From a virus (lineage: Duplodnaviria; Caudoviricetes), in IMG/VR virus record IMGVR_UViG_3300028888_000122, positions 7,976 to 71,975 of that record: a DNA stretch of 64,000 bases; one strand, given 5' to 3'. Under the pieces are notes generated by a model. The model was given only the letters and a program-made list of their open reading frames with translations. It was not told where the DNA came from and made no database searches. Of the stretch, positions 47,880-62,586 are shown piece by piece (within the stretch, counting starts at the first letter, position 1; each line of letters begins with the position of its first letter). The position numbers and the translations under genes are program-made.

Positions 47880-48098
47880 TTACTTGAGGTTGTTCTTTTG
47901 CTTGCAATAGTCATACAAAGCTTGAAACGCTTGTTTGCGTGTGTATCCGTTCTTGTCGCCATAGCGGATAACATCGCTCATCATAGTGTTGGTGCTTGTG
48001 CAAGAGTACATCTTGCTGCGATACTCAATGGTAACCTTGAAGTGCCCTTGGAGGACAGTGCCGATGGTCACGCGGTCTTCTAATTGTGATAGTGTCAT
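47880..48098 (-). CDS. Hypothetical protein
   Basis: Clean ORF with AT-rich leader. Confidence 0.6.
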   Translation of the reverse strand: MTLSQLEDRVTIGTVLQGHFKVTIEYRSKMYSCTSTNTMMSDVIRYGDKNGYTRKQAFQALYDYCKQKNNLK

Positions 48099-48119
48099 AG
48101 TTTTTTGATTGATTATTAG

Positions 48120-48587
48120 TTAGTCTTCAACGAGTGTTACTGAACCAAAGTAGAACGTAGTCTCGCCGTACTTGGCCTGTTCAAGATATGACAGGAGCTG
48201 CGGCAAAGTGAGAAGGTTTGTCGTGTCGTAGCCGACAAAGAACAGGTCATCGATGAAATAGAGCGTGTTCAACGCCTTCCATGACGACATTACTGAGCCA
48301 GAGAAGCCGCTGAAACGGACATCATAGGCGTGTGCGATAAGTTGATCACAGTAGTCCTCGGCGCAAGCCTTTGTGGTGCCATGATAGACCATCTCGTCGC
48401 CGTTGATAGAGAAGCACTCCTCGGGGAGCAGCGTCTTGAGCTTCACGATAGCCTCACGGCGAACGCTTTCCTGGATTTCGAATATATCGTCATACGGGCA
48501 GAAGTGCCAATTAGCTATAGACGCAGAATCACGGAATTGCTCTTTGTTGAGCATCAGTTGGTAGATGAATTTTTCTTTTTCACTCAT
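48120..48587 (-). CDS. Hypothetical protein
   Basis: Clean ORF with AT-rich leader. Confidence 0.65.
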   Translation of the reverse strand: MSEKEKFIYQLMLNKEQFRDSASIANWHFCPYDDIFEIQESVRREAIVKLKTLLPEECFSINGDEMVYHGTTKACAEDYCDQLIAHAYDVRFSGFSGSVMSSWKALNTLYFIDDLFFVGYDTTNLLTLPQLLSYLEQAKYGETTFYFGSVTLVED

Positions 48588-48638
48588 TTGTTTTAGTTAT
48601 TAGTAAGTTGATTAGGGGTGGTGTGATGCCACCCCTTC

Positions 48639-49583
48639 TCATTTAAAGAACTGCAGTGTCGTCTCGTCGATTTCCTTGTCGGCGCAGATGTAGTTGCGCC
48701 ACGTGATCTGCGGGTCGGAGTGTCCCATGAGCCGTGCGATGGTCGTCACCGCAGAGCCATGCAGAAACAGGAGCGTGGCGAAAGTGCGCCGTCCCGTGTG
48801 AGACGACACGAACTGCCACTTCGGCCCTTGTTCCTCCGCTCCCCGCCTCGTCAGCGTCACAGGTTCGTTGATATGCGCCCTGCAACAGAGAGAGCGCAAC
48901 GTGTCGTTAAACGTAGCCATGCGTGTCACAGGTTCTTCGCTGTCATCCTTTGCGAGATACTGTCCAAGCCACCTGTGCAACGGCACAGTCACCTGGTTTC
49001 CCGTCTTGACAGCCCGGTAGGTCAACGACTTCTTGCGCGTGTTGGCATGCTTGGACGATATTCGCTCAGCGTCGATATGTCTGGCTCCAGTGAGCGCTTC
49101 AATCATGAACACACGTTTGACATAACGTTCCGTTGCGTTTATCGTGCGCACATCGTTAAGCCGCTCCAACTCATCCTGTGTAAGATACACCGCTTCTGAC
49201 GGGTTGCGCTTCATCTTCAAAGACCTGTTGATGTCGCACACCTCCAGCGGGTCTTTCCCCTTGTGTACATCATAGTTATTGGCGTTGAGCACCGCCTTGA
49301 CCTGTGAGCACAGAGTCTTTACCGAAGAAGGGCACCGTCCGTTACTCAGCGCTTCACGCAAGTCACGCAGGTTGCTGTCGGTGATGTCGTCCCACGTGGG
49401 CGCGTGACCGAGAACTGCCGAGAACACATCGAGCGTCTTGCCAGCGTTAGGCCACTTGGTGAGGAAGCGACCGATGAACGACTTTCGCCATTCACCGATG
49501 TCGTCCCCCTCGTTGTAGTAGCCTTTCTTTGTCGCCTTCTTGACCGCAAGCAACACCTCGAACGGATAATAGTTGTCGCTCAT
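48639..49583 (-). CDS. Second tyrosine recombinase, lacking an arm-binding domain
   Basis: TGARHID, SSHTGRRTFAT, LMGH, RNY: catalytic set intact. Confidence 0.85.
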   Translation of the reverse strand: MSDNYYPFEVLLAVKKATKKGYYNEGDDIGEWRKSFIGRFLTKWPNAGKTLDVFSAVLGHAPTWDDITDSNLRDLREALSNGRCPSSVKTLCSQVKAVLNANNYDVHKGKDPLEVCDINRSLKMKRNPSEAVYLTQDELERLNDVRTINATERYVKRVFMIEALTGARHIDAERISSKHANTRKKSLTYRAVKTGNQVTVPLHRWLGQYLAKDDSEEPVTRMATFNDTLRSLCCRAHINEPVTLTRRGAEEQGPKWQFVSSHTGRRTFATLLFLHGSAVTTIARLMGHSDPQITWRNYICADKEIDETTLQFFK

Positions 49584-49747
49584 AGTCCACGCTCCCTTCT
49601 ATGTTTCTCGAACTTGTAGTCATCGTACTTGCACTTGATGACAAAGCCGATGATGTAGAGCACAACGCCGATACCGACCATAGCGAATCCGTACCAGCCA
49701 AGCAGCATGACTCCGAAGATGAGCCAGATAATAGAAGCAAATCTCAT
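49580..49747 (-). CDS. 55-aa two-TM membrane protein (absent from the ORF track)
   Basis: MRFASIIWLIFGVMLLGWYGFAMVGIGVVLYIIGFVIK...; ATGA-coupled to the recombinase; TAACTTTG promoter box at 49777-84. Confidence 0.6.
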   Translation of the reverse strand: MRFASIIWLIFGVMLLGWYGFAMVGIGVVLYIIGFVIKCKYDDYKFEKHRRERGL

Positions 49748-49811
49748 TGTTTCCCTTTTTTGAACTATTTGTTTTGCAAAGTTAATAAAATTCTTCCAAC
49801 ATAGTTAAAAA

Positions 49812-50117
49812 TCAGCAAAAAAGATTTTTATTTTCAAGAAAATATGGTCTCCATCCGCATGTTTGCGTGATGTCACACCACACATCCTTGATGTTCTCCT
49901 CCCAGCCGTTGTCGATGTCCTCCTGGATGATGCCGATGTCCAACGTATTGGGCAGCGTGTAGAGGATGATGCGGCACTGGAACCAGTCATCGCGGAATGC
50001 GATGGTGTGGCGGTATCCTTCATCGTCCTCGCAGTCCAACACGAAATGTCGAGCTGCCCCTTCGCGTTCCCTGAGCACGAACTCCTCGAACTCCTCGAAA
50101 GTGAGATAATGTTTCAT
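49812..50117 (-). CDS. Hypothetical protein ending ENKNLFC
   Basis: Downstream of hammerhead 1. Confidence 0.65.
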   Translation of the reverse strand: MKHYLTFEEFEEFVLREREGAARHFVLDCEDDEGYRHTIAFRDDWFQCRIILYTLPNTLDIGIIQEDIDNGWEENIKDVWCDITQTCGWRPYFLENKNLFC

Positions 50118-50149
50118 TGTTTGATTGATTTATTAGTTAATAAAAGTTT

Positions 50150-50213
50150 GTTCCATACACCCGCAACACGTACGGGTGTTTCGTCGCCTTTCAGCGGTAC
50201 TCATCAGTGGAAC
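50150..50213 (-). ncRNA. Type I hammerhead ribozyme 1 (GUA site)
   Basis: GTTCCA-CTGATGA-stem II-GAAA-CACCCG/CGGGTG-TA-TGGAAC. Confidence 0.85.
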
Positions 50214-50215
50214 TT

Positions 50216-61350: not shown

Positions 61351-61371
61351 AATCGTTCGGTTTTAACTGGT

Positions 61372-61854
61372 TTAGCAACCGCGCAGGTCGTAGAGTTTCT
61401 GCCTGAGGTCGTGCCACAATACGTCACACTCGCACTCGAGCGATTGTGTACGCTTGCGCAGTTGTTCATACAATGGATTGAGCAGATTGTGGGCGTACAG
61501 CATCCTGGCTCGCTGCAGGGCGAACTGCAAATCCTGCACACACCGCATCAGCGGCTCGATGTCGTTCTCCTGGAGTTGGTCGAACTCGATTTCACGCTCG
61601 CTCTTGCGGTGCGCGGTAAAATACAGCACACGACCGCTCGGGCATTTCACGTAGAACTCGTCAAGCGGAGCCCTGCGAGATGAAAGCCTGTAGCCGTTGA
61701 ACTCCTGCACACGAAGTTCGTCGCTCCAACACTTTTCCCATGACTCGTAGATTTCCTGGCTCTCGTGCGTGTAGATGTAAATCCACAAACCGCCGTCAAT
61801 CTCTCCGCGCATTGCGCTCTCGTCAATCTGTTGTGATAATGTTTCGATTAGCAT
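61372..61854 (-). CDS. Hypothetical protein
   Basis: Downstream of the pistol ribozyme. Confidence 0.65.
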   Translation of the reverse strand: MLIETLSQQIDESAMRGEIDGGLWIYIYTHESQEIYESWEKCWSDELRVQEFNGYRLSSRRAPLDEFYVKCPSGRVLYFTAHRKSEREIEFDQLQENDIEPLMRCVQDLQFALQRARMLYAHNLLNPLYEQLRKRTQSLECECDVLWHDLRQKLYDLRGC

Positions 61855-61881
61855 AATTTCTCTATTTTAAAGTTAGTAAAT

Positions 61882-61943
61882 GTTCACCCACATTTTTGTG
61901 ACGCTCTGAGCCTAAGAACCTGTTTTGAGTCGCTCAGACGACT
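61882..61943 (-). ncRNA. Pistol ribozyme
   Basis: P1 AGTCG/CGACT with loop TCTGAG pairing to CTCAGA (pseudoknot), AAAA linker, P2 GTTC/GAAC, GCGT, P3 CAC/GTG, GGT cleavage junction. Confidence 0.82.
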
Positions 61944-62062
61944 TTTTCTATCATTCATCGTACTTGAAATCCACGTGAACGAAACAAATCGTACTCGAAA
62001 AATTTCCAAGCACAATTTCAGCGGGGAAAACGCGTTTTTTACACGCTCTCCCCGCCTATTGT

Positions 62063-62281
62063 TCATCGTACTATCGGGCGTAACGATGACCGCCTGTGCG
62101 GTGGCATCGGTTTGTAGCGGATAACGTCGCCGGCAAAGTTCACTTTGTAAACCGTCGGTTCCCAACCCGTGTCAACTGTGACGTGGAACGTACACGCGCC
62201 GATCTGCTGGTAGTCAACAATCGGCTTGCCGATAATCTCGGAAAAGCGCTGGAGTTCGCGCTGAATCTGCATGTAACTCAT
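62063..62281 (-). CDS. Hypothetical protein
   Basis: Coupled ORF. Confidence 0.5.
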   Translation of the reverse strand: MSYMQIQRELQRFSEIIGKPIVDYQQIGACTFHVTVDTGWEPTVYKVNFAGDVIRYKPMPPHRRSSLRPIVR

Positions 62282-62283
62282 GA

Positions 62284-62496
62284 TTAGAAATCGTTTACGT
62301 CCATCGTTCCCTCGTTCATGTAGCGCAGGGAGTCAAGACAGATTAAACTCTTCTTGTTGCTCAACGGCACCTGGAAACAGTAGCATTTGCAGGCATTGAG
62401 GAGCCACATGATTTTCTCACACACACTCGTAGCGAGCTCGACTGAGCCCTCGTTGATGATTTCTTTGCGGATTTCGCAGAATTTGTCGATAGTCAT
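62284..62496 (-). CDS. Hypothetical protein
   Basis: TACTAAC leader. Confidence 0.55.
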   Translation of the reverse strand: MTIDKFCEIRKEIINEGSVELATSVCEKIMWLLNACKCYCFQVPLSNKKSLICLDSLRYMNEGTMDVNDF

Positions 62497-62524
62497 AATT
62501 CTCTATTTTAAAAGTTAGTAGTGT

Positions 62525-62586
62525 TTGTGCCCACGTGCGGAATTGAACCGCCGGCCGTAGCCCTGGCACCGCTGCCAGACGTGGGC
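62525..62586 (-). ncRNA. Compact tRNA mimic (8-bp acceptor + 4-bp T-stem, tetraloop in place of the anticodon arm)
   Basis: GCCCACGT-CTGGCA-GCGG-TGCCAG-GGC-TACG-GCC-G-GCGG-TTCAATT-CCGC-ACGTGGGC-ACAA. Confidence 0.7.

Follow-up and report, generated by a model that had tools for sequence, protein, structure and literature searches.

The virus record IMGVR_UViG_3300028888_000122 of IMG/VR comprises 71,975 bp and is estimated to be 87% complete. Its bases 7976-71975, a stretch of 64,000 nucleotides referred to here as the window, contain a 15-kb block of small genes (positions 47880-62586 of the window) in which nearly all of the larger gaps between genes carry a self-cleaving ribozyme motif or a tRNA-like fold. 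The window codes for a large terminase, a major head protein, a tape measure, tail proteins and two tyrosine recombinases, which together indicate a temperate tailed phage. The genes of the block and all of its RNA elements lie on the minus strand and converge on plus-strand genes ending near position 47816. A Pfam search of the block genes left most of them without any match. The plus-strand genes have A-rich leaders without Shine-Dalgarno sequences, and several promoters in the window fit the Bacteroides type (TTTG, about 20 nt, TAnnTTTG), which indicates that the host is probably a member of the Bacteroidota.

Every gap between minus-strand genes of the block was listed and inspected. Structured RNA was found in 17 gaps of 51-332 nt, always as an element followed by a leader: six type I hammerheads, two pistols, six tRNA look-alikes, two copies of a three-way junction designated motif A, and one hairpin (Table 1, slots A to Q). 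Ten further junctions are tight, with 2-21 nt and no element. The initial annotation of this region had described sixteen element slots on the coding strand; the elements do lie where it placed them and the minus strand is indeed the coding strand, with a count of 17. Its six hammerheads were all recovered, its single pistol became two, and its three tRNA mimics became six once variant T-loops are counted. The six structures that it had left unassigned correspond to one pistol, three tRNA look-alikes and the two motif A junctions, and the block thus holds fewer independent element types than had been claimed.

Table 1. RNA elements and transcription signals in and next to the minus-strand block, in the direction of transcription; positions are those of the window.
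Feature	Position	Strand	Properties
Terminator hairpin of the gene upstream of the block	63168-63204	-	strong
Motif A, third copy	63083-63159	-	outside 47880-62586; model R1 32.1 bits, E 5e-5
Slot A, tRNA look-alike	62528-62586	-	7-bp acceptor stem, canonical T arm, discriminator then CA; before the first leader of the block
Slot B, pistol	61882-61943	-	RF02679 58 bits (cut-off 34.5), full-length; predicted 32-nt leader from 61886
Slot C, hammerhead type I	60909-60972	-	directly after a UAA stop; predicted 3' product from 60914
Slot D, hammerhead type I	60349-60412	-	predicted 3' product from 60354; motif A in the L130 counterpart
Slot E, tRNA look-alike	59896-59939	-	variant T-loop UCCGACU
Slot F, tRNA look-alike	58204-58245	-	canonical T arm (UUCGAUU), 12-bp stack
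Slot G, tRNA look-alike (motif B)	57042-57093	-	7-bp acceptor-like stem, 4-bp hairpin (NACGA loop), 5-bp T-like arm (AGCGAGA loop)
Slot H, tRNA look-alike	56669-56716	-	7 + 5 bp, T-loop UCCGCAA (UUCGCAA in L130)
Slot I, tRNA look-alike (motif B, second copy)	55791-55842	-	as slot G
Slot J, motif A	55406-55461	-	three-way junction; model R1 91.4 bits
Slot K, motif A	54651-54706	-	three-way junction
Bacteroides-type promoter	54398-54429	-	TTTG, 20 nt, TAATTTTG; inside the block; conserved in relatives
Terminator-like hairpin	54312-54343	-	14 bp then U run; between the internal promoter and the slot L pistol
Slot L, pistol	54139-54214	-	33.1 bits, just under 34.5; predicted 42-nt leader from 54143
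Slot M, hammerhead type I	53275-53336	-	predicted 3' product from 53280
Slot N, hammerhead type I	52629-52687	-	directly after the stop of a 46-codon reading frame; predicted 3' product from 52634
Slot O, hammerhead type I	52083-52145	-	predicted 3' product from 52088
Slot P, hammerhead type I	50150-50213	-	GUA triplet, irregular stem II; 31.1 bits; predicted 3' product from 50155
Slot Q, hairpin	48615-48635	-	7 bp, conserved 7-nt loop, then leader; compensatory stem change in L131

Relatives were found with the M42-peptidase-like protein encoded at 57102-58166, which has homologues of 59-75% identity on the contigs L130, L131 and L132. These three are syntenic with the block and show a matching pattern of gaps. 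A phage with a peptidase-like homologue of 50% identity has tightly packed genes without such gaps. An IMG/VR search with the 536- and 354-amino-acid proteins yielded no close relatives, and a megablast comparison with GenBank phages gave nothing useful.

The hammerhead core pattern CTGAYGAG..CGAAAY matches the window six times, against 0.05 matches expected from shuffled sequences, and all six matches lie on the minus strand in gaps between genes. The conserved core (CUGANGA, GAAA and a UH cleavage triplet) is present in every copy, the sixth (slot P) having GUA as its triplet. All six are of type I: they begin 0-2 nt past a stop codon, stem I is open to the flanks and the cleavage triplet stands 6 nt from the 3' end, where this topology puts the predicted scissile bond. 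Upon explicit checking of the pairing in five copies, at least five of six pairs were formed in stem I, all four in stem II and all five in stem III. Stem II of the sixth is irregular, a feature also conserved in L131, and this copy together with an upstream hairpin fits the RAGATH-1 hammerhead model over 50151-50236. With the Rfam models, which the initial annotation had put forward as a check, one pistol scored above the cut-off, and the hammerheads and the second pistol ended just under it. The two best hammerheads reach 33.5 and 33.2 bits and the rest 22.9-31.1 bits, the curated cut-offs being 34 and 56.3; the shortfall is attributed to long inserts in stem III, of 17 nt where the model has 2. 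Two short minus-strand open reading frames, at 52688-52828 (46 codons) and 52146-52301 (51 codons), have their stop exactly at the start of a hammerhead and are conserved in the relatives.

The second pistol (slot L) has orthologues above the cut-off in L130 (37.3 bits) and L198 (35.7 bits). Pistol ribozymes are cut at a G-U step, as established from their structure. In both pistol alignments GU stands at the expected cleavage position, between P3 and P2. The cleavage site of this class lies within the 3' substrate strand (PMC4604425). With the sites of both the type I hammerheads and the pistols near the 3' edge, a cut would leave the folded ribozyme on the upstream RNA and a short, unstructured leader with a 5'-OH end on the downstream one, an anatomy that fits the processing proposed in the initial annotation.

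The six tRNA look-alikes (slots A, E, F, G, H and I) lack an anticodon arm. ARAGORN called no tRNA, no cloverleaf was recognised and the Rfam tRNA models gave weak partial matches only. Each consists of two stacked helices, split 7 + 5 or 5 + 7 bp, which add up to 12 bp, the length of the acceptor/T stack of a tRNA, and is closed by a canonical or variant T-loop. All six share the geometry of t-elements and mascRNA, in which an acceptor stem stands on a T arm, with about 12 bp in total and a T-loop as cap. Slot A has weak Rfam matches to tRNA-Sec (19.1 bits) and mascRNA (16.3 bits), and the T arm of slot F fits the mascRNA and tmRNA models. The slot before the gene for the 536-amino-acid protein carries the loop UCCGACU in the window, AGCGAUA in L130 and the canonical UUCGAUU in L131, and three loops in one orthologous slot tie the odd loops to the T-loop. 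In motif B, the form found in slots G and I, the 5-bp arm with the AGCGAGA loop stacks directly on the 3' strand of the first stem. Its alignment of 11 copies from five contigs, representing only two lineages, has 98.3% of cells paired, and nine of 16 pairs show compensatory changes.

Motif A folds into a three-way junction. Its UA junction is invariant, and its loops read UGAAAACAG and YCGGA. It was aligned from 17 distinct copies, taken from the window, the three syntenic relatives and seven metagenome contigs. In this alignment 96.8% of cells are paired and 13 of 20 pairs show compensatory changes; no shuffle reached as high, and controls with slid alignments gave 30-49% paired. The fold is real. 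A search of 54600-58260, which holds both motifs A and B, against 4227 Rfam models returned no match to either up to an E value of 10, and on these grounds twister sister, hatchet, hairpin and hepatitis delta virus-like ribozymes were ruled out for both. Two exact-pattern scans for motif A in IMG/VR returned only chance matches that do not pair. A covariance model built from the copies, R1, added three more: the third copy of the window (63083-63159), which has a different P3 stem, and one each on L239 and L243. The copy on L239 (1814-1886) has five bases in place of the nine-base loop and keeps the rest; the one on L243 (1602-1674) is a hybrid that joins a loop of the motif A type to a T-like arm with AGCGAUA.

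ACUAAC occurs in 12 of the 17 leaders that follow an element, compared with one of the ten tight junctions and at most four in random draws of 17 windows, and variants with one mismatch account for all 17, in agreement with the initial annotation, which had described a leader usually containing UACUAAC. It had proposed near-uniform leaders of about 35 nt; the lengths predicted here are 32-42 nt after ribozymes and 29-38 nt after tRNA look-alikes. G makes up 9% of the leaders and 25% of the block. In the gene that follows slot J, the first ATG (55372-55402, minus strand) is probably spurious: in the relatives this position reads ACG and the gene begins 30 nt further on, with a leader of the normal kind as the result. 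ACUAAC was also considered as a general translation signal of the host, and this was ruled out, the plus-strand genes and the tight junctions being without the box. A scan of IMG/VR for a hammerhead followed by the leader returned mostly unrelated hammerheads. The unrelated AT-rich phages L109, L013, L096 and L087 have type I hammerheads followed by a leader with (A/U)ACUAACU about 15 nt before the start codon, and the box is therefore not confined to the clade of the present phage.

Complements of the box were noticed at two places. On the minus strand, positions 62610-62640 form a block 95.6% identical in L130 that holds the complement of the slot A leader box. In the minimum-energy fold the two pair around the look-alike, with a duplex of only -8.4 kcal/mol, and a cut at the slot A mimic would, in this model, part the box from its complement. 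On the plus strand, the noncoding region 42986-43363 contains two tRNA-like folds, one of which ends in CCA. In the second (43229-43363) a large loop replaces the anticodon and includes 10 nt complementary to the leader box found in the leftward block; its duplexes with eleven leaders are 1-3.4 standard deviations better than shuffles in energy.

Comparison with the relatives revealed that the type of element in a given slot can change. The slot before the Kyano_Gp96-like gene (slot D) holds a hammerhead in the window and in L132, motif A in L130 and a chimeric hammerhead in L131. This last element (L131:3245-3349) looks recombinant, composed of halves of two different copies; its stems are unpaired, it is recognised neither by Rfam nor by the explicit pairing check, and it is probably defective. 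Directly past the terminator of the gene upstream of the block, the window has its third copy of motif A, where L130 and L131 have a twister-like ribozyme (41.3 and 56.9 bits, both under the Twister-P1 cut-off of 67.2); the twister models found no match in the window. Such swaps of type within one slot support a shared cutting role.

In pairwise blastn comparisons, elements and leaders are often 87-95% identical, and the genes between them are 71-77% identical or cannot be aligned. Such islands of high identity, flanked by diverged or replaced genes, would also be expected if the elements were mainly conserved linkers for homologous recombination and the shuffling of gene cassettes, with RNA cutting secondary or absent. 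The gene content between fixed elements does vary among the relatives, and the chimeric hammerhead of L131 looks assembled from two copies. Linkers, however, could do without intact catalytic cores, without covarying helices and without a set orientation towards stop and start codons; compensatory changes show selection on RNA structure, and a swap of type within a slot destroys homology. We regard recombination as the main role of the elements as quite improbable.

The same swaps bear on the nature of motif A, which stands in for a hammerhead in one orthologous slot and for a twister in another. It might accordingly belong, perhaps along with motif B, to a new class of self-cleaving ribozyme recruited to hammerhead, pistol and twister slots, and not be a substrate of host enzymes. 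The absence of any Rfam match even at E 10 in the 3.6-kb search, the strong covariation and the conserved nucleotides of junction and loops are in keeping with this. So is the finding that, on every longer metagenome contig with motif A, a pistol and hammerheads lie no more than about 2 kb away, the kind of association that led to pistol and hatchet; if the proposal were true, motif A would be a find by guilt of association, like pistol, hatchet and twister sister. The architecture of the motif speaks against it. P1 and P3 form a 12-bp tRNA-like stack of 7 + 5 bp, the YCGGA loop of P3 is compatible with a five-base T-loop, and the UA junction stands at the place of U8 and position 9 of a tRNA, so that motif A too fits the geometry of t-elements and mascRNA, with a five-base loop. 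There is no conserved unpaired nucleotide between P3 and the 3' strand of P1, where hammerhead and pistol are cut. The L239 variant without the nine-base loop, the L243 hybrid and the altered P3 of the third copy, taken with this geometry, make a mimic of the tRNA top half likelier than a ribozyme. We consider a new ribozyme class unlikely, and motif A, from its sequence and fold, is probably another such mimic.

Signals for the start and end of transcription are few. The one internal Bacteroides-type promoter, together with two strong terminators in about 16 kb, fits long transcripts. This promoter is predicted to start a second transcription unit. The long 5' region of that unit extends as far as the slot L pistol, and cutting there would trim about 250 nt of 5' region back to a standard leader. 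The 14-bp terminator-like hairpin, situated within about 60 nt of the promoter and upstream of this second pistol, may act as an attenuator, or else may terminate transcripts that read through from the first unit.

From the motifs observed, their orientation and covariation, the slot swaps and the islands of conservation, we infer the cutting, the enzymes involved and the role of the leader box. It is fairly probable, in our judgement, that long transcripts of the block are cut at the element slots, by self-cleavage or by host enzymes that trim tRNA, into units the size of a gene. The block would be read leftward as at least two long transcripts, which carry small accessory genes of a temperate phage. 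At the larger junctions between genes there would be an RNA element that serves as a defined point of cleavage. The six type I hammerheads and the two pistols, eight elements in all, would cut themselves, with the break at their 3' edge. Eight or nine others would resemble the upper half of a tRNA, in that a 12-bp acceptor/T stack is capped by a T-loop-like elbow and the anticodon arm is missing; the host would presumably cut these, with RNase P acting on the 5' side and RNase Z past the discriminator. RNase P acts as a ruler of acceptor and elbow geometry, and its substrates include mRNAs and tRNA-like RNAs (PMC4919913, PMC4919922). By either route the upstream message would acquire a folded 3' end, and the downstream message would start with an unstructured, G-poor leader of 29-42 nt carrying the UACUAAC box. 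Translation and decay of each gene or short group of genes would thus become independent of the neighbouring genes. The units of element plus leader, which are conserved, would also mark the points at which cassettes are swapped among relatives.

Several observations weigh against this account. The ten junctions without an element imply that processing is not required for every gene. Most of the hammerheads and one of the pistols score slightly below the Rfam cut-offs. Recognition of the mimics by RNase P or RNase Z is an assumption; in several of them the T-loop departs from the canonical form (AGCGAGA, UCCGACU, YCGGA), and a CCA end is missing from all. A scan for motif A in the species genomes of GTDB yielded chance matches only and hence no prophage host. 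Finally, the duplexes of the leader box with the two possible anti-leader sequences are just 1-3 standard deviations better than shuffles, and give a lead only.

These duplexes belong to a further explanation, by which the structures stay uncut and, as folded obstacles or as sites where proteins bind, either shield RNA ends or regulate translation of the next gene through its leader box. Complements of the box do exist, upstream of slot A and in the loop of the plus-strand tRNA-like RNA (43229-43363), and slot Q is a plain hairpin without a cutting motif. Such a role is nevertheless very unlikely, as the catalytic core is complete in eight elements, whose classes were shown to cleave in comparable phage settings (PMC3088659), and the anti-leader duplexes rise only weakly above shuffles.

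Some further features of the window were recorded. About 11 otherwise unrelated small proteins encoded at 49812-60320 on the minus strand, and proteins of L130, L131 and L132, share the motif D-K/R/N-N-L/M/F-F at the C terminus or within two or three residues of it, and it is kept on many cassette genes of the relatives. The possibility that its codons form part of an RNA element was ruled out, as third-codon positions vary synonymously; this marks the DKNLF-type motif as a peptide motif and not RNA, possibly a shared docking or degradation tag. The roughly 450 nt between the third copy of motif A and slot A (62640-63080, minus strand) have no credible gene. GAGCGA occurs nine times there on the transcribed strand, often in hairpin loops, against 0-3 times per 4 kb elsewhere, and the counterpart of this region in the relatives has insertions and deletions that are not multiples of three. 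At about 32712-32745 on the minus strand, directly upstream of the integrase gene at 31318-32547, lies a sequence that resembles a tRNA in its 3' part, with T arm and acceptor strand. It is likely to be the core of the attachment site, and could name the host.

The arrangement has precedents. Perreault et al. 2011 described clustered hammerheads flanking prophage genes, proposed that long RNAs are processed into gene-length mRNAs, and found that three tandem arrangements cleaved in vitro (PMC3088659). In both cases several ribozymes on the same strand flank the genes of a phage region, one by one or in short blocks. The present locus differs in having 17-18 elements in about 15 kb, with hammerheads mixed with pistols and anticodon-less tRNA look-alikes, a standard leader box for each element, swaps within slots, and twister in relatives. 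In the work of Weinberg et al. 2015, as described in PMC4604425 and PMC5737381, the association of ribozymes with genes and RNAs led to twister sister, pistol and hatchet. There, as here, ribozymes of different classes lie near one another and near phage genes; that work describes a statistical association within a few kb, whereas the present elements occupy defined slots between stop codon and leader in one operon, alongside tRNA mimics. The initial annotation had called the density and mixture of elements exceptional, which was too strong given that clustered phage hammerheads were in print in 2011 (PMC3088659) and that the discovery of pistol and twister relied on the clustering of ribozymes near phage genes (PMC4604425). 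Both classes are known to be associated with phage genes and with other ribozymes.

The tRNA-like elements have parallels outside phages. In the tRNA punctuation of mitochondria, in plant mitochondrial t-elements (PMC1920247) and in the mascRNA of MALAT1, tRNA or tRNA-like folds direct RNase P and RNase Z to produce the ends of mRNAs. The likeness lies in such folds inside long transcripts, for which processing is predicted in the present case. Unlike those of all these systems, the elements of the block belong to a phage, have no anticodon arm and often no canonical T-loop, and alternate with ribozymes. In the literature searched, we found no description of tRNA-like mini-helices alternating with ribozymes in phage operons. 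In synthetic constructs with ribozyme insulators, and in polycistrons spaced by tRNAs, an element placed in front of every gene gives uniform 5' leaders and makes the genes independent of one another. Those systems are engineered, and the present locus would be their natural counterpart. The locus is a very dense and mixed case of an arrangement whose outline has been known since 2011, and it adds one new RNA fold.

Reviews describe most self-cleaving ribozymes of bacteria and phages as functional orphans, their function being unproven (PMC6765202). The block and its relatives amount to a natural experiment on this question, as hammerhead, twister, pistol or a mimic of the tRNA top half is used in the same slot before the same gene. 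The swaps suggest that selection acts on the cut as such, made at a constant distance from the standard leader that follows, and no feature specific to one ribozyme class seems to be required. The locus offers eight predicted cleavage sites, eight or nine candidate substrates of RNase P and RNase Z with unusual T-loops, and one well-supported new fold. If the proposed processing is true, phages of hosts without Shine-Dalgarno-based initiation would build their operons in the manner of synthetic biologists, with an insulator before each gene.

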